A stretch of 64,000 nucleotides of DNA from Chloroflexota bacterium. Its GTDB lineage: Bacteria > Chloroflexota > UBA6077 > SHYK01. Positions 8,981 to 64,000 of the stretch are shown here, piece after piece. The number at the start of each line of letters is the position of its first letter. The stretch's first letter is position 1. The notes beneath the pieces were generated by a model. The model made no database searches, was not told where the DNA came from, and worked only from the letters and a program-made list of their open reading frames with translations. The position numbers and the translations under genes were made by a program. The stretch covers positions 5,265 to 69,264 of the forward strand of contig DASRDP010000150.1 in assembly GCA_035652535.1 (NCBI GenBank), in the 5' to 3' direction.

Positions 8981-10503
8981 GGACCGACCCGCGATACGCG
9001 CGGCCGCCGGGCACGCGGTGGGCTGCTCGATGCGAGCGACGCGACGGACGCGCGGAACGCCTCGCCGCGCGCCTCATAGTCGCGGAATTCGTCGAAGCTG
9101 GTACATCCCGGTGAGAGCAACACGACGTCTCCAGGCTCCGCGGCTCGCGTTGCCAGTCGGACCACCTCGCTGAACGATCGGGCGATCGTGACCGGAACGC
9201 TGGAGCCAGCCGCCCTTAGCGCGCGGTCGATGAGCGGCGCCGCCTCGCCCACCAGCACGACTGCGCGCGCCCGGCGGCTAATGAGCTGAGCCCAATCCTC
9301 CATCGGTGTATGTTTGTCCCGCCCGCCGGCGATCAGAACCACTGGGGCGTCGAAGGATCGTAGCGCCGCCATGGACCGCTCAGGCGACGTGGCGATGGAG
9401 TCGTTGACGTAGGTAACGCCGTCCACGGTCGCGACGACCTCGAGGCGATGGGCAACCGGTTCGAAAGCGCGTAAGGCCCGCCGAATCGGCTCGACCCCGC
9501 AGCCCGCGGCCTGCGCAATGCACGCTGCCGCGAGGGCATTGGCCACGTTGTGATCGCCGCGCAAGTTGATCTCGGCGCGGTTCAGCAGGGGCACGAAGTG
9601 TCCGTCCCCGCCCGGTGGGCTTGCTAGCCAGAGGATCGAGCCATCGTACCAGGCGCCGGACGCAGGTCCGGTCATTCTGAAGTCAACGGTGGCGCTCGCG
9701 TGCGCGAGCGACCGGACGATCGGATCGTCGGCGTTGAGAATGGCCGTGTCCACGGGGAGTTGATGACGAATGATGTTCGCCTTGGCGCGGACGTAGTCCT
9801 CCATGTCCGCGTGGCGATCCAAATGGTTGGGCGTGATGTTGAGAATCGCAGCAATTCTTGGAGACTGGGACACATCGGCGAGTTGAAAGCTGCTCAGCTC
9901 CAGAACACACCACGTCTGCTCGGTGATGTCCGGCAGCCGTCGCAGCATGGGCGTTCCGATATTGCCGCCCACAACGGATGGGATGTCGCCCGCTGCCAGA
10001 ATCGACCCCACCATGGTAGTCGTCGTGGTCTTGCCGCTACTGCCCGTGATCCCGATGATCGGCCCGGGGCAAAGTTCAAAGAAGAGCCGCGTAGCGCTGG
10101 AGACGCGCGCACCGACCGCGCGGGCCCGCGCGACGACGGGCTCCGATTGCGCCACGCCCGGGCTGACGAAGATCTCGTCGCAGTCCACGAGATCTTCGGC
10201 CGTCTGCTGGCCGAGACTGAAGCGAACATCGAATCCGCGGAGCGCGGTCAGCGCCTCCTGGAGTCGTTCGGCAGGTGCCCGGTCGCTCACCACGACTTCG
10301 CGCGCCCGTGGCGCGAGAAATTCGACGAGATCAACACCCTCTCGCCCGAGTCCCACGATCCCTATGCGCTCGGTGCGCAATTCGCCGAGCCTGGCGACCG
10401 CGGCGGCGGAGAGGCGAGCCGCGAAGCCGTGGTCCGCTGTTCCGTGAGCGCGTGCGCGATCGGTCAATCGTTTACCGTGGTCAAAACGCGCGGCGACTCC
10501 CAT
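8974..10503 (-). CDS. murD: UDP-N-acetylmuramoylalanine--D-glutamate ligase MurD
   Basis: IVGLGREGVDLVEFL, ITGSSGKTTTTTM and Mur ligase domains. The N-terminal ~40 aa is longer than typical, so the start is uncertain. Confidence 0.88.
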   Translation of the reverse strand: MGVAARFDHGKRLTDRARAHGTADHGFAARLSAAAVARLGELRTERIGIVGLGREGVDLVEFLAPRAREVVVSDRAPAERLQEALTALRGFDVRFSLGQQTAEDLVDCDEIFVSPGVAQSEPVVARARAVGARVSSATRLFFELCPGPIIGITGSSGKTTTTTMVGSILAAGDIPSVVGGNIGTPMLRRLPDITEQTWCVLELSSFQLADVSQSPRIAAILNITPNHLDRHADMEDYVRAKANIIRHQLPVDTAILNADDPIVRSLAHASATVDFRMTGPASGAWYDGSILWLASPPGGDGHFVPLLNRAEINLRGDHNVANALAAACIAQAAGCGVEPIRRALRAFEPVAHRLEVVATVDGVTYVNDSIATSPERSMAALRSFDAPVVLIAGGRDKHTPMEDWAQLISRRARAVVLVGEAAPLIDRALRAAGSSVPVTIARSFSEVVRLATRAAEPGDVVLLSPGCTSFDEFRDYEARGEAFRASVASLASSSPPRARRPRVSRVGPC

Positions 10504-11463
10504 CTAGATGAGCGCAAGAGCGATTCCCACCATGCCCGTCAGCATACTTACCAGCCAGAACCGTTGCGCGACGTGGGTCTCGGACCATCCGAGCATCTCG
10601 AAATGGTGGTGGAGCGGAGACATCCGGAACAGGCGTCGCCCGCCGGTGAGCTTGAAAAACGCTACCTGGAGAATAACAGACGCAGCTTCGGCCACGAACA
10701 CGAATCCGATGATCGGTAGCAGGAGCAGGTGTCCGGTCATGAGAGCGACGGCCGCCAGGGCAGCGCCCAGGGACAGAGCGCCCGTATCCCCCATGAACAG
10801 GTCCGCCGGGTAGGCGTTGAACCAGAGAAAGGCAAGTAGAGCGCCCACGACGGTGAAGCAGAACGTCGCGAGCGGAGACTGGCCCTGGAGATGGGCGATG
10901 ATTCCATAGCACGCGAATGCCACGGCGGCGCACACGCCAGCCAGGCTGTCCAGCCCATCAGTCAGGTTCACGGCGTTCGCAGTGGCGACGATAGCTAGGG
11001 CTGCCAGGGGTATGTACCACGGTCCGATGTGGAGCCGCTCGGTCACGGTCGGAACGAAGAGGTAATCGAGGCCGAGGATCCAGTAGATGGCGGCAGCGCA
11101 CGCGAGCGCAATGGCTGTCAGCCCGCCGAACTTGATTCGAACGGTTAAGCCTTCCGCCGTATGTCCCCGAATACCCAGGACGTCGTCGAGGGAACCCAGG
11201 AGCCCTGTGGCTGCCGTCGCGCCCAACGGCACGATGATGGAAGGATTGTTCAGAACGTTGAACGCGGCTGTCGAGATGAAGACCGATCCCCAAACGACGA
11301 TGCCGCCCATGGTCGGTGTGCCCATCTTTTGCTGGTGCGTCTCCGGGCCCTCCGATCGAATCTGCTTTCCGATCCCTAGCCGACGCAGGACGCGGATCGC
11401 CGGAAAACCAGCGATGAAGGCGATACCGAAGGCGACCGTGGCGATCGCGAGTGCGTATGACAA
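10504..11463 (-). CDS. mraY: Phospho-N-acetylmuramoyl-pentapeptide transferase MraY
   Basis: Polytopic membrane protein with the NAVNLTDGLDSLAG and MGDTGALSLG MraY signatures. Confidence 0.92.
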   Translation of the reverse strand: MSYALAIATVAFGIAFIAGFPAIRVLRRLGIGKQIRSEGPETHQQKMGTPTMGGIVVWGSVFISTAAFNVLNNPSIIVPLGATAATGLLGSLDDVLGIRGHTAEGLTVRIKFGGLTAIALACAAAIYWILGLDYLFVPTVTERLHIGPWYIPLAALAIVATANAVNLTDGLDSLAGVCAAVAFACYGIIAHLQGQSPLATFCFTVVGALLAFLWFNAYPADLFMGDTGALSLGAALAAVALMTGHLLLLPIIGFVFVAEAASVILQVAFFKLTGGRRLFRMSPLHHHFEMLGWSETHVAQRFWLVSMLTGMVGIALALI

Positions 11464-54339: not shown

Positions 54340-54747
54340 ATGCAGGGACGTCAGCGCCGGATCCTGGTCGTTGAAGACGACCCGACAACGTCGGACATCC
54401 TGCGAATTCTGCTCGAGGATAGTGGCTGTTCGATCGTCACCGCTGAAAACGGCGAGGAGGCGCTGCGGCGAGCTCAGGAGGGGGACGTCGACCTTATCAC
54501 ACTGGACCTTGGCCTGCCCGGCATCGACGGTCGTGAGCTGCTTCGTCGCTTTCGGGATGAGCCGAACACGGCCCGCGTGCCGGTCATCGTGATCACCGGC
54601 ATGTGGTTCGACACGGACCGCAGCGGCGACGTGGCGGCGGTCCTGGAGAAGCCGTTCGACGCCGAGGAGCTGGAGAAGGCGGTCCGTCAGGTGCTCGAGC
54701 TCCATCCGAACCGCACGAGCCGTCCGCAGGCGCCTCCTCAGTCGTAG
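54340..54747 (+). CDS. Single-domain response regulator (CheY-like receiver)
   Basis: ILVVEDDP and DLITLDLGLPGIDG, with the phospho-acceptor Asp in LITLD. Start at ATG 54340 after a GAGGCGGAG Shine-Dalgarno. The upstream part of the track ORF is junk. Confidence 0.8.
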   Translation: MQGRQRRILVVEDDPTTSDILRILLEDSGCSIVTAENGEEALRRAQEGDVDLITLDLGLPGIDGRELLRRFRDEPNTARVPVIVITGMWFDTDRSGDVAAVLEKPFDAEELEKAVRQVLELHPNRTSRPQAPPQS

Positions 54748-56330
54748 ACAGTGCTGGAATAGGTCGCGACATCGACAAATGCCTCGATGACGCTCGGTCC
54801 GCCGAGGTTAAGGCCCCAATCCACCGCCTGCTCCAGTTCACCAATCGTTCGGGCTGCGCGTACCGGTACCCCGAAGTAGTGGGCCGGTGGCTCGACCCTG
54901 GGACCCAGCTCAACGCCCGAGTACGAATACCCCTTGCGCTCCTGTTTCACTTTGATGAGGCCCAGCCACCCGTCGTTCAAAACGACGATGGGAACGGCGA
55001 GATGAAGGCGACGGGCGAGCGCCAGCTCGCCGACGGTCATCTGAAAGCACCCGTCGCCGACGATTCCGACGACGACCCGGGAAGGGTGGACGAGCTTCGC
55101 TGCGAACGCGGCCGGCAGCCCGAAGCCCATCGATGACCAGCCATTGGTGGAGATCGCGCTCCAGGCCTCGTCGGTCCGCCACTGCGTCGCGATCTGGTGC
55201 GTATGCGCGCCGACGTCATACGCCAGAATCCCGTCGGGGGGAAGGGCGCGTCGGATGCAATCGACCACGTGGTGGGTCGCAAGGGCCGCGCTCTCAGGGC
55301 GAAGCTCTCGATCGAGGCGCGCTCGATGCACTTCCCATTCTGAGCGGTTCCAGGCGTTTGGGACGCGGGAGAGCTCCGCCATACGCTCGATTGCCGCGCC
55401 GAGGTCGCCGACGAGGTTCTGAACCGAGAGCCGTGGATCGACGTCAGCCACCTCGGTGCTGATGTGCAGCACGGGCTGGCTGTCGATCCAGTCCTCATAG
55501 TTGATCTCCACGGGATCGAATCCCACGGCAATGACGAGATCGGCGCGGCGGACAAAGTCCTGCACGGTCGACCGACGTGCGCGCCCCAGCGTGCCGGCCC
55601 ACGCCGGGTGCGATTCAGGCAAGAATCCCTTGGCGTGCATCGTGGTCACGAACGGGATGCGCTGTCGATCCAAGAAGTCGAGCAGGCGCGACCGATTCGG
55701 CGCGCGCGTGAACCCGAGGCCGACGGCGACGAGCGTGCGCTGCGCCTGCCCCAGCGCCCGGAGGACGGCGGTGGCGGTCGCTCGGGATGTATCGAGCGGA
55801 CGCTCGGGCTCCTCGGCGCCCGCCAAATTGCCGAGGGCTGGCGCGAGGGCGACGTCTTCGGGGAGGTCGAGATGGACAGGGCCTGGTGGCTCGGCGCCCG
55901 CGACCTGAAATGCGCGATCGAGCTGGCTGGCGACGTTGGAGGTCCGCAGGGGAAGGCTGGCTTTGGCGATGGGCGCGAAGAGCGCGTGATGGTCGATGCG
56001 CATCTGGACGCGGCGGTCGAGCCATGACGTGGGCACGTTGCACGTCAGGGCGAGGACCGGCGCGCGATCCAGCCACGCAGCGCCGACCCCCGTCGCGAGG
56101 TTCGTCGCGCCGGGGCCCAGCGTCGCGACGCATACGCCCGGGGTCCCGGTGAGCTGGCCAACCGTGGTCGCCATGAATCCGGCGGACGTCTCGCTTGCGG
56201 TGAGGACGTAGTCAACGTCGCTCGTTCGGAGCGCCTCGATGAGCGGTAGCACGGGTCCGCTGGGAACACCGAACACCCAGCGGACGCCTGCCGATTCGAG
56301 GCGCCTCGCGATGAGCTCCGCGTTGTTCAT
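54738..56330 (-). CDS. Thiamine pyrophosphate-dependent enzyme, acetolactate synthase large-subunit-like
   Basis: TPP_enzyme N, M and C domains (GVPSGPVLPLIEAL...GDGCFQM...LNDG). Start at MNNAELIARRL. Confidence 0.8.
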   Translation of the reverse strand: MNNAELIARRLESAGVRWVFGVPSGPVLPLIEALRTSDVDYVLTASETSAGFMATTVGQLTGTPGVCVATLGPGATNLATGVGAAWLDRAPVLALTCNVPTSWLDRRVQMRIDHHALFAPIAKASLPLRTSNVASQLDRAFQVAGAEPPGPVHLDLPEDVALAPALGNLAGAEEPERPLDTSRATATAVLRALGQAQRTLVAVGLGFTRAPNRSRLLDFLDRQRIPFVTTMHAKGFLPESHPAWAGTLGRARRSTVQDFVRRADLVIAVGFDPVEINYEDWIDSQPVLHISTEVADVDPRLSVQNLVGDLGAAIERMAELSRVPNAWNRSEWEVHRARLDRELRPESAALATHHVVDCIRRALPPDGILAYDVGAHTHQIATQWRTDEAWSAISTNGWSSMGFGLPAAFAAKLVHPSRVVVGIVGDGCFQMTVGELALARRLHLAVPIVVLNDGWLGLIKVKQERKGYSYSGVELGPRVEPPAHYFGVPVRAARTIGELEQAVDWGLNLGGPSVIEAFVDVATYSSTVYD

Positions 56331-56359
56331 GGGTGGCCGCCGGTCACGGGGCAATCGAC

Positions 56360-56765: not shown

Positions 56766-58037
56766 CTACAGGGAGTTGGCAGCCGCGCGAGCCGCGCGGC
56801 CGAGCAACAAGGCGCGCTCCCGCGCATTTCGCGTGAGAGACGCGGCACGGGCGAACTCGGCGCTCGCCTCGCTGGTTCGACCGAGCTGGCTCAGCAGCTC
56901 CCCACGCACGCTCGGCAGGAGATGATACGTGCGCAACGACGGCTCACCTCGAAGCGCATCGACGATGGCGAGCCCCGATTCCGGGCCGAATGCCTTGGCA
57001 ACCGCCACCGCGCGGTTCAACTCGACGACCGGCGATGGTGCCGTTTGGGCGAGCGCATCGTAGAGGGCGGCGATCTTTGCCCAGTCCGTCTCCTCCGGGG
57101 TGCGGGCCCGGGCGTGGCATGCCGCGATGGCTGCCTGAAGCCCATATGGACCGAGGGCGCCACCCAGGGCCTCGGCCCGGGCCAGCGCGGCGAGGCCGCG
57201 ATGGATCAGGATGCGATCCCAGCGACCTCGGTCCTGATCGAGGAGCAGGACCGGCTCTCCGCCGGGACCAACGCGAGCGCGCATGCGCGAGGCCTGAATC
57301 TCCATCAGCGCGACGAGACCGTGGACCTCGGACTCGTCGGGCGTCAGCTCTGCGAGGACGCGGCCGAGCCGCAAAGCATCCTCGCAGAGGCCGGGCCGCA
57401 TCCAGTCGTCCCCGGCGGTTGCCGCGTAGCCCTCGTTGAAGATGAGGTAGATAACCTCGAGTACGGAGGTGAGTCGCGCGGCCAGCTCAGGCCCACGGGG
57501 CACCTCGAACGCCACATGGGCCGCTGCGAGCGTTCGCTTTGCCCGGACGATCCGCTGGGCAACGGTGGCTTCCGGGACCAGAAAGGCCCGCGCGATCTCA
57601 TCGGTCGTGAGGCCGCCCAGGAGGCGCAGGGTGAGCGCCACCCGCGCCTCCGTCGAAAGGACCGGATGGCACGCGGTGAAGATGAGGCGCAAGAGATCGT
57701 CATCGATCTCGTCATCGACTGACTCATCGATGGACGCGGTGTCCCATTGGCCCGCGTCCGCAATAGCACGGCCGATGAGCTCGTGCTTGCGCTCGAGGCG
57801 GGCGGAACGGCGGAAGTGATCGACGGCGCGATGCTTCGCCGTCGCCATGAGCCATGCCCCCGGCTTGTTCGGGATGCCGTCCTCGGGCCACTGCTCCAGG
57901 GCGGCGACCAAGGCGTCCTGCGCGAGGTCTTCGGCCAGCCCGACATCGCGGACGAACCGCGCGAGCCCGGCGATGAGGCGTGGGGCCTCTATGCGCCAGA
58001 CCGCTTCTATGGCAGGCCGGATGTCGGGCTGGCTCAC
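56766..58037 (-). CDS. ECF-type sigma-70 factor with a long C-terminal extension
   Basis: Sigma region 2 (DLAQDALVAALEQWP), region 4 (LGGLTTDEIARAFLVPEATVAQRIVRAKRTL) and a ~200-aa C-terminal domain. Start is tentatively GTG 58037; the N-terminus of the track ORF is Arg/Ser-rich junk. Confidence 0.75.
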   Translation of the reverse strand: MSQPDIRPAIEAVWRIEAPRLIAGLARFVRDVGLAEDLAQDALVAALEQWPEDGIPNKPGAWLMATAKHRAVDHFRRSARLERKHELIGRAIADAGQWDTASIDESVDDEIDDDLLRLIFTACHPVLSTEARVALTLRLLGGLTTDEIARAFLVPEATVAQRIVRAKRTLAAAHVAFEVPRGPELAARLTSVLEVIYLIFNEGYAATAGDDWMRPGLCEDALRLGRVLAELTPDESEVHGLVALMEIQASRMRARVGPGGEPVLLLDQDRGRWDRILIHRGLAALARAEALGGALGPYGLQAAIAACHARARTPEETDWAKIAALYDALAQTAPSPVVELNRAVAVAKAFGPESGLAIVDALRGEPSLRTYHLLPSVRGELLSQLGRTSEASAEFARAASLTRNARERALLLGRAARAAANSL

Positions 58038-58050
58038 GGAACGCGACCGG

Positions 58051-58404
58051 TCACGCGAAGTCGGACGGCTCGTACATCTGGTAGAGATCCACCTCGCCAC
58101 CGCCGATGAGGTTGAGGAACTCAGTGGTGCGTTCGATGGCCTCTTCCTTCGAGGTGACCTGGAGGATCGCATAGCTCGCGATCAACTCTTTGGACTCGGT
58201 GAAGGGGCCGTCGGTGATGCTGCGTCGGCCACTCGCGACCCGCACCGTGGTGGCCTTCGAGCTTCCCTGGAGACCCTCGGTTGCGACCAGCCAGCCGTTC
58301 TTCTTGGCCTCGTCGATATATTGTCCCATCCGGCCGAAGTCATCCGCGTTGGGAACATAGTTCTCGGTGTCCTTGTTGCCCTTGAGAAGCGCCATGTAGC
58401 GCAT
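58051..58404 (-). CDS. YciI-like / DGPF-domain protein
   Basis: MRYMALLKGNK...TDGPFTESKELIASYAILQVTSKEEAIE. Contains the DGPF motif. Confidence 0.75.
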   Translation of the reverse strand: MRYMALLKGNKDTENYVPNADDFGRMGQYIDEAKKNGWLVATEGLQGSSKATTVRVASGRRSITDGPFTESKELIASYAILQVTSKEEAIERTTEFLNLIGGGEVDLYQMYEPSDFA

Positions 58405-58414
58405 CGGCCCCCTC

Positions 58415-58846
58415 CTATCCCCGCGCGTTCTGGGCTGCTTGCGCCCAGGTGCGCGCTTCCTGCTCGCGCAGCTCGGGGGTGAACGCTTCGCCAAAGTCCT
58501 CTGCCTCGAACACTTGGCGAAGCTCGAGGACGACGCCGTCGGGAAATGGCGCGCGGCGCATCCACGCGATGGCCTCGTCCTTCGATTTCACCTGGATGAG
58601 CCAGAACCCGGCGATCAGCTCTTTCGACTCGGTGAACGGGCCGTCCATGACCGCTGTCGTGCCGCCCGAGAATCTGATGCGGGCACCCTTGGACGTGGGG
58701 TGCAGGCCCTCGCCGGCCAGTAGGACGCCGGCCTTCACCATCTCCTCGTTGAACTTGCCCATCTCCGCCAGAGTCTTCTGGTCCGGCATTTTCCCGGCTT
58801 CGGTCTCTTGTGTGGCTGGCACCATCACCATAAATCGCATCGGCAT
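58415..58846 (-). CDS. YciI-like / DGPF-domain protein (tandem paralog)
   Basis: MPMRFMVMVPAT...MDGPFTESKELIAGFWLIQVKSKDEAIAW. Confidence 0.75.
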   Translation of the reverse strand: MPMRFMVMVPATQETEAGKMPDQKTLAEMGKFNEEMVKAGVLLAGEGLHPTSKGARIRFSGGTTAVMDGPFTESKELIAGFWLIQVKSKDEAIAWMRRAPFPDGVVLELRQVFEAEDFGEAFTPELREQEARTWAQAAQNARG

Positions 58847-58952
58847 GACCTCCCGTTTGTAGATTCGAGCGGGATGTTTTCCCTCTCTGCTTATACGTCG
58901 ACCGGGGGTCGCGAAAATCGACACGACGTGACGGGAATTTTTGGAAAAGGGG

Positions 58953-59465
58953 TTACTGGCCGGTCACGGGGTAGCTGGGTGAGGTCTCGTGGGTGGCGGT
59001 GTCTCCCGGCGGCGTGAATCCCCCGTACTGTGAGTAGGCGTTGCCCGTCGCGGAGGGATTTCCCTGTGCTCGCTGCTCCGCCGCCTGCTGCGGAGTGAAT
59101 TGGAACACGTTGCTGTAGGGACTCCAGACGGGCACACCGTTCACGTAGGGCGTGTCGCCCGGGCGCGTATAGCCAACCCCCACACCGATGCCGACGACGT
59201 TGGCGTTGCCGATATCGTGGACGACCACGACGCCGTTTCGGGTGACGTACCCGCCCGTGACCAGAATAACATCTGGCCCCGAACCCTCAGCGGTGCATGC
59301 TGGCGTTACCGACCAGCTGAATGGGGTGTCTGTCGGTACAAGCGAGGTGGTCCCATCATCACACGCTGCGCGCGCGGTCGGCGCTCCGAATCCGCCGTCC
59401 GCCGGCGCCAAAAGCAGTGCGCTGGCGACGATGGTTGCCGCGCCGATCGTCAATCCGAACCTCAT
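58953..59465 (-). CDS. Secreted hypothetical protein (signal peptide, Gly/Val/Tyr-rich)
   Basis: N-terminal signal peptide MRFGLTIGAATIVASALLLAPA. No recognisable domain. Confidence 0.5.
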   Translation of the reverse strand: MRFGLTIGAATIVASALLLAPADGGFGAPTARAACDDGTTSLVPTDTPFSWSVTPACTAEGSGPDVILVTGGYVTRNGVVVVHDIGNANVVGIGVGVGYTRPGDTPYVNGVPVWSPYSNVFQFTPQQAAEQRAQGNPSATGNAYSQYGGFTPPGDTATHETSPSYPVTGQ

Positions 59466-59720
59466 AATCGCTATCCTCCGTCTGGGCTCCGGACCCGGAA
59501 GGACACTCGAAAGCTCACCGTGGCACGTTCAGCGCGCGAGTTGCGGCGTGTCCTCTGCGGGGGAGTTTGGCCCTGCTTGAAGGGTAGGAGCACGCGAACG
59601 GCTGTCGCGACAGGTTGGTGGGTGGTTAGGGCGCACCCAAATGGGCGGCGATGCCCCCCGACCATTCGGGGGGTGAGGTACGGTCGGCTGTCGAACGCAG
59701 ATGAAGGCGCCCGGCCAGCT

Positions 59721-61394
59721 TCAGTCGGGAAACAGACGATCGCGGTTGCGACAGAGGCACTCGACGAACGGCACGAAGCGATTCGCGGACCGCGCGGAGT
59801 CGCCCGTCACGCTCTCCAGGATCTGCAGGCGCCGCGCCTGATCGACTGCGCGATCCACCATGCTGTGGACCAGAATGAGGGGCATGAACTCCCTCGCGAT
59901 CTGGAGCCGCCGCAGATAGTTCGCGATCTCATTGAGGACTGCTGATCGCAGAGCCGAGCGGAATTCACGCCGCAAGAACAGGTCGACAAACGCTTGCACT
60001 TCCGCGTTCGGCGCATTCATCCGACGCGCGGCCGCGTACCAGTAGGTCACGAAATAGATGAGATCGCACAGCGGGAGGCCGTAGCGCTCGCCCTCTGTTT
60101 CGTCCCGAGACTCCCAATCGATCACGGTGAGGCGGTCGCCGTGGCGAACCACGTTCCATGGGCCGAAGTCATTGTGTCGATACACAATCGGCAGCCGTCC
60201 TCGCAGCCGTCGCCCGTAGTCGATCGCCGAGGAGAAGAGCGTGTGCTCGGCTCGCGTAAGGCCCAGCACGTCGCGGTACGCCGCGAATCGTCTTTCGATC
60301 CACTCGCCCTGCTGCTCCGGGCCCCAGGGCGCGCGCGAGAGCACCGTTTCCTCGTGGAAGCGCGTGATCCAGTCGCTCGCGCGGTGAAGGTCGGCGAGGC
60401 GACGCGTGGACGACGCTCCCCATTGTGCGGTCGACACCTGAAGCGATGAGCCCGATGCATACGACTCCACTGCCACCGGCGACGCGTCCGAGTCGGCGCT
60501 GGTCTTCATACCCAACGCCGCGGGCAGGGTGGATTTCATGGTGGGTGATAGGCGCTCCCGGAGGTAGCCGAGCGTCATCTGCTCACGCATCGTGTGCTCG
60601 CTGAATGCCGAGTCTCGCGCCAACTTCAGAACCGCGGACGGCTCCGCTCGACCCTGAGCGAAGGGCAGCACGACGACGCGGCTCCCATCGTCGCGCCCAC
60701 TGGTCAGCACGACCGGCCGGACGTCTTCCGCGGCGATGGCAGGTGGTACGCCTGGGGCCGCCAACGCGCGGGGGCGCGCGGCGGGCACCGGCCCCGCCGT
60801 CGCCACCATGCTGTAGCAGGGGACGAATCGATCTATCCCCCCCTGAAATGTTCCCAGCACCCGCATGATGGCTCGCAGGAGACGAAGGCGTGGGCTCCCC
60901 GCGACGAAGGATGTATCGAAGTACCACCGAATCGCGGCGGCGCAATCCAGGGGGACGAACTTGCGCGGCGCAGCGTGATGTGGGACAACCCAATACGTGG
61001 AGGTGGCGAACAACCCGACATTTCGCATCGCCCGCCGCAGTCGACCGGGCGTCCAGGCAAGCGACGCCCGCCGGTCGATCTCCCAATAGACGAGGCCGCC
61101 AGGCTGTACGAAAGCAGCCACCGCTGAGGGCGGAACCGCGGCGCCCGCGAGCACGACGACCGCGTCAGCCTCGGCGGATACGTTCGGATTCACGCTGAGT
61201 CGGTCCGATAGGTTCAGCTCTTTGAGCCGCGCCGCCGCGCTCGTCGGCGTCCCGAGGACGACCAGGTGCTCGAACCGGCCCTTGGGGGGCAACGGCAAGA
61301 GGAATCGCCAGTCAAAGCGGCGAAGGGAAACCGCTTCGGACGCTCTGTCCTTCAAGGGCCGGCCACTCCAATTTCTGACTGCCGCCGCAGACAT
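59721..61394 (-). CDS. Two-domain protein: N-terminal Rossmann/methyltransferase-like domain fused to an APH/choline-kinase-fold phosphotransferase domain
   Basis: C-terminal kinase-like region: AVLKLARD (Lys), IVYRHNDFGPWNVV (HxDxxxxN catalytic loop), LTVIDWE (metal-binding Asp). The N-terminus has LVVLG...PGGLVYWEI. Start taken at ATG 61394; the upstream 125 codons are Arg/Pro-rich junk. Confidence 0.6.
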   Translation of the reverse strand: MSAAAVRNWSGRPLKDRASEAVSLRRFDWRFLLPLPPKGRFEHLVVLGTPTSAAARLKELNLSDRLSVNPNVSAEADAVVVLAGAAVPPSAVAAFVQPGGLVYWEIDRRASLAWTPGRLRRAMRNVGLFATSTYWVVPHHAAPRKFVPLDCAAAIRWYFDTSFVAGSPRLRLLRAIMRVLGTFQGGIDRFVPCYSMVATAGPVPAARPRALAAPGVPPAIAAEDVRPVVLTSGRDDGSRVVVLPFAQGRAEPSAVLKLARDSAFSEHTMREQMTLGYLRERLSPTMKSTLPAALGMKTSADSDASPVAVESYASGSSLQVSTAQWGASSTRRLADLHRASDWITRFHEETVLSRAPWGPEQQGEWIERRFAAYRDVLGLTRAEHTLFSSAIDYGRRLRGRLPIVYRHNDFGPWNVVRHGDRLTVIDWESRDETEGERYGLPLCDLIYFVTYWYAAARRMNAPNAEVQAFVDLFLRREFRSALRSAVLNEIANYLRRLQIAREFMPLILVHSMVDRAVDQARRLQILESVTGDSARSANRFVPFVECLCRNRDRLFPD

Positions 61395-62698
61395 TGGAGC
61401 CGATCGCGGTAGAGCGCCCAGAGCTGCTCGGTCACGTCGGAGAGGACCTGATCGACTGCTCGGCTGGAGTCGATGATCCGAAGACCTGGGATTCGACCTG
61501 CAATCGCGAGATAGCTCGCCCGGGCTTCTCCGAGTTGCTGTGCCGTGTGCTTCCGGGCGCCCTTGCGCAGGAACATGACCTCGCCGGGTGCATCCAGGAG
61601 AAATGACATGTCCGGCGCGGGACACGCGTGCGCGTCGAACCAGCCCGAGATGCGGTTGAGCCGTTGCACTGGCGGGCGCGCGGGCAGGAGGGCGTCGAAT
61701 GGGTATCGATCGAAAATCACCAATCGCCCTCGCGCCTGGTGGTAGCGGGCCAGGAGGTATCGGCCCCATAGGATCCCCACGCGACTGGCGATCACGAGTG
61801 GCGGGAAGCGGAGCTGTGTGGCGCGGTCAAGCCACCGAGAGTAAATCCCCATATAAATCACCCGCGAGGGGAGCGGGAACCGACGCTTGATCTCCGCTGC
61901 GAGCGTGGACTTGCCCGCGCCGTCTGTCCCCAGCAGTGCGATGCTGGGCCCCTGGCACCGAATGCGGTGGCTGAGCAGCGCTGCCCATCGCGTCACGCAC
62001 GATAGGCGCCCTCTCTTTCCTCGACGGAGGCGCCTCGGCCAATTTCTGGCGAGGGCCGGACCGAGCGCTTCGACCTTCTCCCATTCGCCTCGCCGGACCG
62101 TCGCGACGATCGTCGTCGGACTCCAGGTGGGTGGGGCGGACTGCGCGATGAAGCGGACAATCGGTCCATCGCCCACGGCCCCGGGCGCAAGCTCCGTCAA
62201 CGTCTGTTTGTGGCTCGCCGAGAAGATTCGCTTGTCGAGCACGCAATGAAGAAGGAGCGCCCAGAAGTAGTCGTTGGGCGCAAGAAACGAGGTCGTGCCA
62301 ATCACCTGTCGTCGAGCGAGACATTCAGCCGCTAGGCCAGTTGTCAGACGGTAGCCCTCTCCGAAGGCGAGCTCGCTGGCTACGTCGAGCCAGAGCCATC
62401 CCTTGCCCACCGGGTCATACGCGAGGTAGTGCGGGTGCGAGTCGTCTCCCCACCCCGGCACCCGAGCGAAGCCGAGCGAGGTCAGAATATCTCCGACCTG
62501 ACGCACGTCTCCCCGATGCACGAGCAGGTCGATGTCTCCGCTGGTCGGGATGGCCGACGTTGTCCCGCGGAGGAGGCTCCAGGCCACCCCGCTGGCCTGA
62601 AACGATTGAAACACGGCGGCCAGGAGGGGCCGTCCGCTACCGGATGACACGGTGGGTGCAGGCATTGGATGGTCCCGGCTATCCGCCAGTCCGCGCAT
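61352..62698 (-). CDS. Two-domain protein: N-terminal Pol-beta-superfamily nucleotidyltransferase fused to a thymidylate-kinase-like P-loop domain
   Basis: N-terminus: LLRGTTSAIPTSGDIDLLV (the G[ST]...D-x-D NTase motif). C-terminus: LLGTDGAGKSTLA (TMK-type P-loop GxDGxGKST) and VIFDRYPFDALL (DRY motif). Confidence 0.6.
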   Translation of the reverse strand: MRGLADSRDHPMPAPTVSSGSGRPLLAAVFQSFQASGVAWSLLRGTTSAIPTSGDIDLLVHRGDVRQVGDILTSLGFARVPGWGDDSHPHYLAYDPVGKGWLWLDVASELAFGEGYRLTTGLAAECLARRQVIGTTSFLAPNDYFWALLLHCVLDKRIFSASHKQTLTELAPGAVGDGPIVRFIAQSAPPTWSPTTIVATVRRGEWEKVEALGPALARNWPRRLRRGKRGRLSCVTRWAALLSHRIRCQGPSIALLGTDGAGKSTLAAEIKRRFPLPSRVIYMGIYSRWLDRATQLRFPPLVIASRVGILWGRYLLARYHQARGRLVIFDRYPFDALLPARPPVQRLNRISGWFDAHACPAPDMSFLLDAPGEVMFLRKGARKHTAQQLGEARASYLAIAGRIPGLRIIDSSRAVDQVLSDVTEQLWALYRDRLQCLRRQSEIGVAGP

Positions 62699-62728
62699 AT
62701 CGAATCCTCACTCTCGTCTTCCACGCTT

Positions 62729-64000
62729 CTACGCCGCTTTGACTGTCGCGTCGCCGCGGATGTCCGCGAATCGTCTCAGGATGCCCCCCATTGCGTTCCG
62801 GCACGCGGCAAGCTCCAGCGGGCTCGCGCCGAGGCGGAGATATGCCGCCGCGTACACGAGCATGCCGGCGAGGGCGAGGGAAGCGACGGTCGGTAACGAC
62901 GTCGGGCGGACTGCGCGCTCCAATGCATACAAGGCGATGGCCATGGGAATGGTCGGCACAAGGGCCGGCCAGATCGCTTGCATCACAAGCTGTTTCGGCG
63001 TGATCCCCACGACGCGCATCGCATATGGCATGACCATCACCGTGCACTCGAACACGGTCGGAATGAGGGTCCCAACAGCGACGCCCATGATCCCGAGTTG
63101 GGACGCGAGGACGACGGAGAGCGCAAGATTGGTTACGCCTGACGCGACCGCCATAATCGCGAGCGGGCGGTGGCGGTTCATTCCTTGGAGTATCGCTCCC
63201 GCCGGCATCAAGAACGCGTCGAAAAGACTCGCGATGGTCAGCACGACGACGACCGCTGCGGCGTCCGCGAATGACTCGCCAACCCAAGCCTCGAGGAGCG
63301 GGCCGGCCAAGAGCGCCAGGATGCAGCCGAGCGGAGCGAACATCGCCAGTGTGAGGCGCGTGCTCACCAGGAACAGGTCCTGTAAGTGGCCGCGGTCCGT
63401 GGCGCTCGACAGCTCCGATGCCACGGGCAGCAAGACGCGCACGAACTGCGTCGTGGCAAGATGAGCGACGCCGCTGAGGCGCCGCGCGATCGCATACGGC
63501 GTGACGGCCGCCACCGACAGCACGGCGCAAACGACGATCTCGTCGGTCCTGGCCTGAAGACGTCCGGCGACATTCACCAAGAACATCGACCAGCTGTAGG
63601 CCGTGACCGTGCGAAAAAGCGCGGCGTTCGGGCGAGCCCGAGCAAATCGGAGCTCGGGCGCCAATCGATCGATGACGAAAACGCTCAGCAGTTGCGTGAG
63701 GATCGTGACCGGAATCTGCGCGGCCACGATGGCGACGATGCCTCCCCCGGCCGCCAGGATGCCGGCCACCGCCGCGATCCATAGCACGAGCCCCGCGGTG
63801 GAGAGCCAGCTCGCCGCATCTGACCGATGCAGTCCCCGCAGCACCGCCCCCGAAGCGGCCGATGGGATCGATACCGCTACGCTGCATCCTGTGAGGAACA
63901 GCAGCCAGTGGACCGAGACCTCTCGCGTCGGAAGCCATTCGTCGACCGGAAGCGACCAAACCAGCAATCCCGCTGCCGCGATGGTGATGCCGCAGAGCGC
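62729..64000 (-). CDS. Polysaccharide biosynthesis / MOP-superfamily flippase (Wzx/PST-like), running off the right edge
   Basis: At least 10 TM helices with PST-family character. The N-terminus lies beyond the window. Confidence 0.7.
   Translation of the reverse strand, partial: ALCGITIAAAGLLVWSLPVDEWLPTREVSVHWLLFLTGCSVAVSIPSAASGAVLRGLHRSDAASWLSTAGLVLWIAAVAGILAAGGGIVAIVAAQIPVTILTQLLSVFVIDRLAPELRFARARPNAALFRTVTAYSWSMFLVNVAGRLQARTDEIVVCAVLSVAAVTPYAIARRLSGVAHLATTQFVRVLLPVASELSSATDRGHLQDLFLVSTRLTLAMFAPLGCILALLAGPLLEAWVGESFADAAAVVVVLTIASLFDAFLMPAGAILQGMNRHRPLAIMAVASGVTNLALSVVLASQLGIMGVAVGTLIPTVFECTVMVMPYAMRVVGITPKQLVMQAIWPALVPTIPMAIALYALERAVRPTSLPTVASLALAGMLVYAAAYLRLGASPLELAACRNAMGGILRRFADIRGDATVKAA

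Follow-up and report, generated by a model that had tools for sequence, protein, structure and literature searches.

In the Lic phosphocholine pathway of Streptococcus pneumoniae teichoic acid, LicA is a choline kinase, LicC a cytidylyltransferase, the LicD proteins are phosphotransferases and TacF is a flippase. WbdD of Escherichia coli O9a is reportedly a bifunctional kinase/methyltransferase that caps the O-antigen chain, phosphorylating a sugar hydroxyl on a lipid-linked glycan. Its methyltransferase-type domain precedes a eukaryotic-like kinase domain, and it is the best known glycan-directed kinase of that fold class. In PAPS synthase, a nucleotidyl-transferring ATP sulfurylase and a P-loop APS kinase act in sequence on a single nucleotide-linked intermediate to give an activated donor for glycan decoration. 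In the pseudomycoidin lasso-peptide cluster of Bacillus pseudomycoides, PsmK installs a phosphate. PsmN, from an uncharacterised nucleotidyltransferase (NTase) family, is then required for attaching a hexose to that phosphate, and an Asp-x-Asp pair in PsmN is essential (PMC6993621). Phosphate-linked tailoring of polysaccharides governs charge, immune recognition, phage adsorption and biofilm properties, and the known routes to it (Lic, WbdD and the LicD/fukutin-type transferases) span few lineages. Described here is a widespread three-gene module that comprises a flippase, an NTase–P-loop fusion protein and a two-domain kinase. It lies at the end of a 64,000-nucleotide stretch of Chloroflexota DNA (GenBank contig DASRDP010000150.1, positions 5,265 to 69,264; 'the window'). 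The reading tentatively favoured for it, held at a little under even confidence, is that the lipid-linked repeat unit undergoes phospho-tailoring in the cytoplasm before export, in a Wzx-dependent surface-polysaccharide locus of a kind that elsewhere, in homologous loci, carries Wzy as well.

Four open reading frames (ORFs) occupy positions 58953-64000 on the minus strand, and three of them form the flippase, NTase–P-loop and kinase set. The initial annotation, made from the sequence alone, had described three co-directional genes: a Wzx-type flippase, a minimal Pol-beta NTase (motif SGDIDLLV) fused to a thymidylate-kinase-like P-loop domain (GTDGAGKST and DRY), and a kinase of the APH type (HNDFGPWN and IDWE) with a methyltransferase-like N-terminus. 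The genes are present as described, apart from a revised start for the kinase, and every domain assignment other than the methyltransferase-like one holds. Full-length homologs are found at E 1e-150 and below, so the three are real genes and not chance ORFs.

The kinase ORF (59721-61769, 682 residues) is longer than the true gene, which on an identical contig is called from a TTG at 61355 and encodes 544 aa. This start overlaps the stop of the upstream NTase–P-loop gene by 4 nt, and lies ten residues ahead of a conserved LRRxDWRF motif, the same spacing as in homologs. The frame remains open for 138 codons 5' of the TTG, overlapping the 3' end of the NTase–P-loop gene in another frame, and an alternative in-frame ATG at ~61394 would overlap the upstream gene by 43 nt. 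The flippase ORF (62729-63967) is a C-terminal part. The window is carried by the 92.9-kb ENA contig ERZ27279688 k141_2389259, a segment of which is numbered here as L001, with window position 64000 corresponding to L001 position 8699. On this contig the flippase gene starts ~306 nt past the window end, so that the window covers residues ~103-525 (~423 codons) and the first ~102 residues lie outside. A match to Polysacc_synt-type hidden Markov models (HMMs) and a polytopic membrane protein together place it among the MOP/Wzx flippases.

Extending the contig past the flippase, as the initial annotation had suggested, reveals a glycosyltransferase-rich polysaccharide locus. In the 8.7 kb covered beyond the window end, and read toward the flippase, the order is GT4, GT2 (396 aa), GT2 (297 aa), an APH-family kinase (517 aa), GT1/GT4 (432 aa), a GT2-polysaccharide deacetylase fusion (553 aa; PF00535 6.5e-30, PF01522 6.6e-28) and GT2 (305 aa). 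Five glycosyltransferases thus accompany the GT2-deacetylase fusion, and the flippase, the NTase–P-loop fusion and the 544-aa kinase come directly after the last of them. The 517-aa protein, which stands among the glycosyltransferases, is a second APH-fold kinase. The two kinases are distant paralogs, aligned by BLASTP over the catalytic loop only (E 2e-6), and two such paralogs are also seen in the related loci L003, L017 and L018. With glycosyltransferases upstream and unrelated genes downstream, the trio forms the distal end of a polysaccharide locus.

The association of the fusion protein with the kinase is conserved. Separate HMMs for the four domains were run against all six-frame ORFs of 87 loci, and the fractions given here refer to the 53 non-redundant loci in which the NTase and P-loop domains share one ORF. 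A kinase domain of the 544-aa type (APH544) occurs within 5 kb in 32/53 loci and within 1.5 kb in 23/53, almost always downstream and on the same strand. Several of the loci that lack a nearby kinase are truncated contigs, and in L005 the APH gene was missed by the HMM. The initial annotation had asked whether the two proteins occur together and in what surroundings; they do, and in a polysaccharide rather than a defence setting. In an Actinomycetota metagenome-assembled genome (MAG) two NTase–P-loop fusion genes stand in tandem (L021:8469-9929 and 9953-11302), followed by a kinase-domain ORF.

The wider neighbourhood was surveyed by blind clustering of the ORFs near the fusion gene in the same 53 loci. 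The largest family, present in 18 loci, is a mixed set of secreted proteins (LamG/Big/PA14, in part with Metallophos). Next come GT2-deacetylase and GT2 (15 loci each), APH544-type kinase and flippase (14 each), GT1 (12) and other APH proteins (10). FemAB-like GNAT proteins are found in 8 loci, the Bac_transf priming transferase and the Wzz/GNVR/AAA_31 co-polymerase (Wzz/BY-kinase) in 6 each, and Wzy_C in 5. Together these families are parts of a Wzx/Wzy-dependent polysaccharide pathway. The secreted-protein BLAST cluster is mixed, with PA14, Calx-beta, cadherin-like and PKD domains, and large Laminin_G_3/Big_5 proteins carrying a calcineurin-like phosphoesterase (Metallophos) occur at L008:5292-7742, L010:12576-14648 and L030:17697-19706. 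On a 578-kb MAG contig (L005; 1-6434 and 12890-16321) four consecutive genes for PF01663 proteins (type I phosphodiesterase / nucleotide pyrophosphatase) stand ahead of the module, which is bordered by three sulfotransferase genes; most loci are without a sulfotransferase. The only defence-like neighbour seen is a 1224-aa TIR_2-AAA_16-TPR protein (L007:17234-20908), and the fusion homolog at that locus stands alone, with no kinase or glycosyltransferases adjoining.

Several parts of the module are also found joined in single proteins. The APH544 family includes many proteins of ~825-950 aa fused to GT2 or GT4, and the family of the second kinase includes GT4 fusions as well as a 794-aa PF14907-kinase fusion (P0267; PF14907 E 2.4e-19). 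The NTase–P-loop protein and the kinase are combined in one chain in P0357, P0383, P0398 and L058. The last of these, from Spirochaetia, is an 839-aa ORF that aligns with the NTase–P-loop protein over its whole length (E 7e-13) and, beyond this alignment, has a kinase domain bearing HGDFAPWN...FDWE. A survey of fusion partners among the 150 best representatives found a C-terminal APH-type kinase in 6/150, GT9 in 2/150, GT4 in 2/150 and, in 8/150, an N-terminal extension with 8-10 hydrophobic transmembrane-like segments by hydropathy scan. In P0294, P0313 and P0384 (~1250 aa) the membrane domain, the NTase–P-loop protein and the kinase form a single chain. Fusions join every adjacent pair of the trio, the flippase side being represented by a MOP-like domain. 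That these parts are fused in some organisms indicates that the trio is one functional unit. The hydropathy scan found no transmembrane-like segments in NTase–P-loop–kinase fusions lacking the N-terminal extension, which is consistent with a cytoplasmic location. Split forms are seen as well, in L036, L038, L047 and L051, where stand-alone TMK-like (thymidylate-kinase-like) proteins of ~230 aa lie beside separate genes for the N-domain and the kinase domain.

The N-terminal half of the 448-aa fusion protein is assigned to PF14907 (NTP_transf_5). The full-length protein matches this family over residues 52-153 with E 7.9e-7 and 29.3 bits, just under the cutoff, and the N-terminal domain alone reaches 31.9 bits against a gathering cutoff of 31.2. 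PF14907 is matched by 32/43 members of the fusion family at E<=0.01, and a sequence search found no solved structure for the NTase domain. In an alignment of 101 full-length homologs, with 36-57% identity to the window protein, the DxD pair of SGDIDLLV is acidic throughout (89 Asp and 12 Glu at D55; 100 Asp and a single Glu at D57), and it provides on strand 2 the DxD/E metal-binding pair typical of the Pol-beta NTase superfamily. The hG[GS] motif expected 9-13 residues ahead of the DxD is lacking; position 45 is Gly in 35/101, and the conserved residues nearby are instead L43 and R44. D143 and H151 are invariant and D155 nearly so, all three on the helix after the DxD. Candidates for the third catalytic carboxylate, which the superfamily has on a neighbouring strand, are D105 (D in 69, H in 32) and E109 (acidic in 86/101).

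The C-terminal half has the fold of thymidylate kinase. PF02223 matches residues 322-418 of the 448-aa protein with E 2.1e-5 (24.7 bits against a cutoff of 27), and the family profile finds solved thymidylate kinases at E 2.2e-11. In the AlphaFold2 model of the fusion (pLDDT 90.1, pTM 0.87) this half fits the thymidylate kinase structure 2pbr with a Foldseek E of 4.2e-7 and a target-normalised TM-score of 0.68. The Walker A sequence GTDGAGKST (GxDGAGKST) is invariant across the 101 homologs at G260, G262, K263, S/T264 and T265. The DRYxxD motif is also kept, with R331 and D335 invariant and D330 and Y332 nearly so, and lid-like residues are present at R378/K379 and R393, of which R378 and R393 are invariant. 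The domain accordingly has the P-loop pattern GxDGxGKS/T-T, the DRY motif and the TMK fold. The dTMP-kinase equivalog model TIGR00041 gives only 18.8 bits against a cutoff of 83.25, and for this reason the domain is classified by its sequence as TMK-like rather than as Tmk. The reading as a housekeeping thymidylate kinase was rejected: the protein does not reach the curated cutoffs, it is joined to an NTase and it lies in glycan loci. A bacterial tyrosine kinase (BY-kinase) role for the P-loop domain was rejected as well, since related loci have their own Wzz/GNVR/AAA_31 protein. In public databases relatives of the fusion are annotated as 'thymidylate kinase' or 'hypothetical'.

The kinase matches the Pfam APH family PF01636 with E 8.6e-12 and 45.8 bits (cutoff 23.2). 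K244, E258, H394, D396 and D413 are invariant across 89 kinase homologs, H394 and D396 falling in HNDFGPWN and D413 in IDWE. HMM match, catalytic residues (the Lys, the Glu, HxDxxxxN and the metal-binding Asp) and fold (structure model pLDDT 93.5) all place the protein in the APH/choline-kinase family. The N-terminal ~200 residues are also strongly conserved in the 89 homologs, with invariant DWRF, D64 and E92, and are modelled by AlphaFold2 as an alternating beta/alpha pattern with pLDDT >90. This region has no Pfam match, and 0/26 members show a methyltransferase Pfam match at E<=10. Against PDB sequences it finds only a non-significant match to a PIMT methyltransferase (E 0.22), over 'DAvvv...GGvl'. 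Its consensus, HLVLLGG...RVS, is without the GxGxG loop for S-adenosylmethionine (SAM) and without an acidic residue after strand 2, and so does not show the sequence features of a class I SAM-dependent methyltransferase. Of the methyltransferase-like N-terminus proposed initially there remains a weak motif resemblance, so that the domain is at most a plausible candidate for a degenerate Rossmann/methyltransferase. As judged from the alignments, the predicted catalytic residues are kept in all three enzymatic domains (NTase, P-loop and APH).

The fusion protein belongs to a large family. A word-indexed search retrieved 336 relatives, nearly all full length and mostly metagenomic. In an exhaustive profile search covering 1.84 billion representative proteins, the number of matches was 12425 at E<=1e-3 and 5825 at E<=1e-10, and at E<=1e-30 the family counts 1438 representative clusters. 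Species-representative genomes were also scanned, and the fusion is present in Actinomycetota, Chloroflexota, Acidobacteriota, Gemmatimonadales, KSB1, Cytophagia, Clostridia and Spirochaetia, with weak and partial matches in Methanosarcinales. Cultured carriers are Micromonospora yasonensis DSM 45980, Micromonospora sp. NPDC004551 and Modestobacter sp. I12A-02662.

Table 1. Positions of the module, its domains and nearby genes (window numbering unless prefixed L001)
Feature	Position	Strand	Remarks
MOP-superfamily (Wzx/Polysacc_synt) flippase gene	62729..64000	-	PF13440 E 4e-11; NCBIfam WZX_like 6.8e-10
Flippase gene, full length	L001:8393-9970		525 aa; PF01943
NTase–P-loop fusion gene	61352..62698	-	448 aa
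N-terminal NTase-fold domain (PF14907, NTP_transf_5) of the fusion	62003..62638	-	Residues ~21-232
C-terminal thymidylate-kinase-fold P-loop domain of the fusion	61352..62002	-	Residues ~233-448 + stop
Kinase gene	59721..61355	-	544 aa
N-terminal ~200-residue alpha/beta domain of the kinase	60756..61355	-	TTG start 61355
APH/choline-kinase-fold (eukaryotic-like kinase) catalytic domain of the kinase	59721..60755	-	
Hypothetical protein 3' of the kinase	58953..59465	-	170 aa; signal-peptide-like N-terminus; module boundary marker
Two YCII-domain genes and an ECF-type sigma factor gene	56766..58924	-	Sigma factor with DUF6596 C-terminal domain
Full-length enzyme dependent on thiamine pyrophosphate (TPP)	54738..56354		
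Second APH-fold kinase	L001:2983-4536		517 aa; ~4.2-5.7 kb past the window end

The 170-aa protein that follows the kinase had initially been counted with the set as a secreted hypothetical. It has no Pfam or NCBIfam match, and among the 87 loci it is present only in L001 and L002, the contigs with the window's own sequence. Because it is absent from related loci, it is placed outside the module. Further 3' are the YCII and sigma factor genes and past them an unannotated 101-aa ORF, followed by the TPP-dependent enzyme; the conservation of the module extends to none of these genes. Scans of 56-64 kb with Rfam and for promoters and terminators returned nothing informative.

Under the favoured reading, the APH-fold kinase would transfer phosphate from ATP to a hydroxyl of the oligosaccharide repeat unit while this is linked to polyprenyl diphosphate, and the divergent paralog beyond the window end would do likewise. 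The NTase-fold/P-loop enzyme would then elaborate the phosphate installed by the kinase. Its PF14907 domain may add a nucleotide- or sugar-derived cap to give a phosphodiester, and its TMK-like domain may either add a second phosphate to the phosphomonoester or phosphorylate a nucleoside monophosphate that is released or used. The decorated unit would be received by the adjacent flippase. We infer the lipid-linked glycan as substrate, the order of the steps and the chemistry of the decoration. A bolder form of the proposal, which appears improbable, is a 'modify-and-flip' machine. In it the trio would be physically coupled and make an undescribed decoration (a nucleotide-capped phosphodiester or a pyrophosphate-linked substituent), PF14907 would represent a novel transferase class directed at phosphate, and only the decorated unit would be taken by the flippase.

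A number of observations weigh against glycan tailoring, and some of them favour its main rival. All of the kinase's nearest structural relatives have small molecules in free form as their substrates (choline, maltose, glucosamine, GlcNAc and antibiotics), and the chemistry of a TMK-like domain points to a nucleotide acceptor, which glycan tailoring fits only indirectly. The N-terminal membrane domain of the fusions matches the MOP models PF01943 or PF01554 in just 4/8 cases, and weakly. An hhalign comparison of this domain with flippases of the window type is co-linear and not significant (E 0.024), and for this reason the domain is called MOP-like and not an ortholog of the window flippase. 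PsmN is only a presumed member of PF14907. In a Caldilineaceae MAG, 1.8 kb separate a phosphoenolpyruvate (PEP) mutase gene (L051:9542-10909; PF13714, E 7.5e-67) from a stand-alone TMK-like gene and APH kinases. At L003:1-6916, 5' of the module, are Ppd-like split TPP genes, an aminotransferase, an NTP_transferase, a CDP-alcohol phosphatidyltransferase and LPG_synthase_TM, with an rve transposase standing between these phosphonate-type genes and the module. The neighbours at these two loci hint at a possible link to phosphonate decoration and the handling of small-molecule headgroups. The rival is precursor activation of the LicA/LicC or AmgK/MurU kind. In it the substrate of the kinase would be a small molecule in free form, whether a sugar phosphorylated at C1, an amino alcohol or a headgroup related to phosphonates. 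The PF14907 domain would convert the product to a nucleoside diphosphate or monophosphate derivative (NDP-X or NMP-X), a glycosyltransferase or phosphotransferase would move X or P-X to the glycan, and the TMK-like domain, with its nucleoside-monophosphate kinase fold and motifs, would re-phosphorylate the NMP. A phosphonate survey also remarks on a PEP mutase flanked by a thymidylate kinase and PF14907 (PMC8942020), and kinase-NTase and kinase-GT fusions would likewise be expected from consecutive enzymes of a linear pathway. However, the MOP-type membrane domain and the GT9 and GT4 fusions would be unusual for soluble precursor enzymes, and a single precursor would not call for two kinases in a locus, both of them with an additional N-terminal domain. 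No phosphonate or headgroup-synthesis genes are found in the window or in the 8.7 kb beyond it, and a motif search for PEP mutase found none in the window or in any locus but L051. To our knowledge, no Pol-beta-type NTase makes NDP-sugars or CDP-alcohols. Precursor activation is considered somewhat unlikely.

The module could instead be regulatory, with the kinase and the NTase–P-loop protein phosphorylating or nucleotidylating proteins of the assembly pathway (the flippase, the glycosyltransferases or the co-polymerase) and so steering its output rather than its chemistry; this seems distinctly unlikely. Minimal Pol-beta NTases are common in toxin-antitoxin and CBASS-like systems, and a conflict or defence role had been raised at the outset; such a system would only happen to adjoin a polysaccharide locus. 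A homolog 6 kb from the TIR-AAA_16-TPR gene in L007 can be cited for it. On the other side, a search of the anti-phage defence models of PADLOC-DB v2 with the fusion protein and both kinases gives no match at E<=0.01. The neighbours across phyla are polysaccharide-biosynthesis genes and assorted secreted surface proteins, and the fusion partners are glycosyltransferases and the MOP-type membrane domain, with no effectors. GC content is flat across the window, without an island signature. Given the lack of PADLOC matches and the polysaccharide-biosynthesis context, a toxin-antitoxin, CBASS-like or other defence system is rejected, its probability being very small.

The components of the module are members of known superfamilies, and glycan tailoring is a known type of function. 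The NTase/TMK-like fusion, its partnership with a two-domain kinase and the coupling to a MOP-type domain are uncharacterised in the literature searched, in agreement with the initial remark that the domain combination was not recognisable. Searches of the literature for PF14907, NTP_transf_5 and the domain combination returned only the phosphonate-survey remark and the PsmN work, and no functional study. The module would give PF14907 its first biochemical context, and would be a rare instance in which cytoplasmic enzymes share a chain with a MOP-type membrane domain.

Compared with described systems, the P-loop domain resembles Tmk (PF02223/TIGR00041) in its fold, its GxDGxGKST P-loop and its DRY motif. 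It differs in the stretch between the P-loop and DRY, which is unlike that of Tmk, in its fusion to an NTase and in its occurrence in polysaccharide loci. The likeness to PAPS synthase is an architectural analogy only; the sequences are not related, PF01583 and PF01747 being unmatched. A WbdD-like capping enzyme was also considered, and neither structure nor sequence was found to support it; there is no active-looking methyltransferase, and the route is by Wzx and not by an ABC transporter. The Lic-type decoration that had been proposed initially stands as far as the surface-polymer setting is concerned, given the contig, the linkage and the fusions. The strict LicA/LicC/LicD analogy fails, as neither a LicC-type (PF00483/PF12804) nor a LicD (PF04991) domain is matched in the window proteins or listed for any L001 gene. 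The Lic pathway also lacks a TMK-like P-loop domain, to which the PF14907 NTase is fused here, and the kinase of this module differs in its extra ~200-residue N-terminal domain and in having a second paralog. By analogy, the module would work most like Lic decoration or a WbdD-type glycan kinase, and it is a member of neither. PsmK and PsmN differ in that the substrate is a peptide serine and the kinase is HPr-kinase-like, not APH-fold or TMK-like. Their pairing of a kinase with an uncharacterised NTase-fold partner nevertheless follows the same logic as that proposed here, and is the only experimental precedent found for such a pairing in the literature searched.

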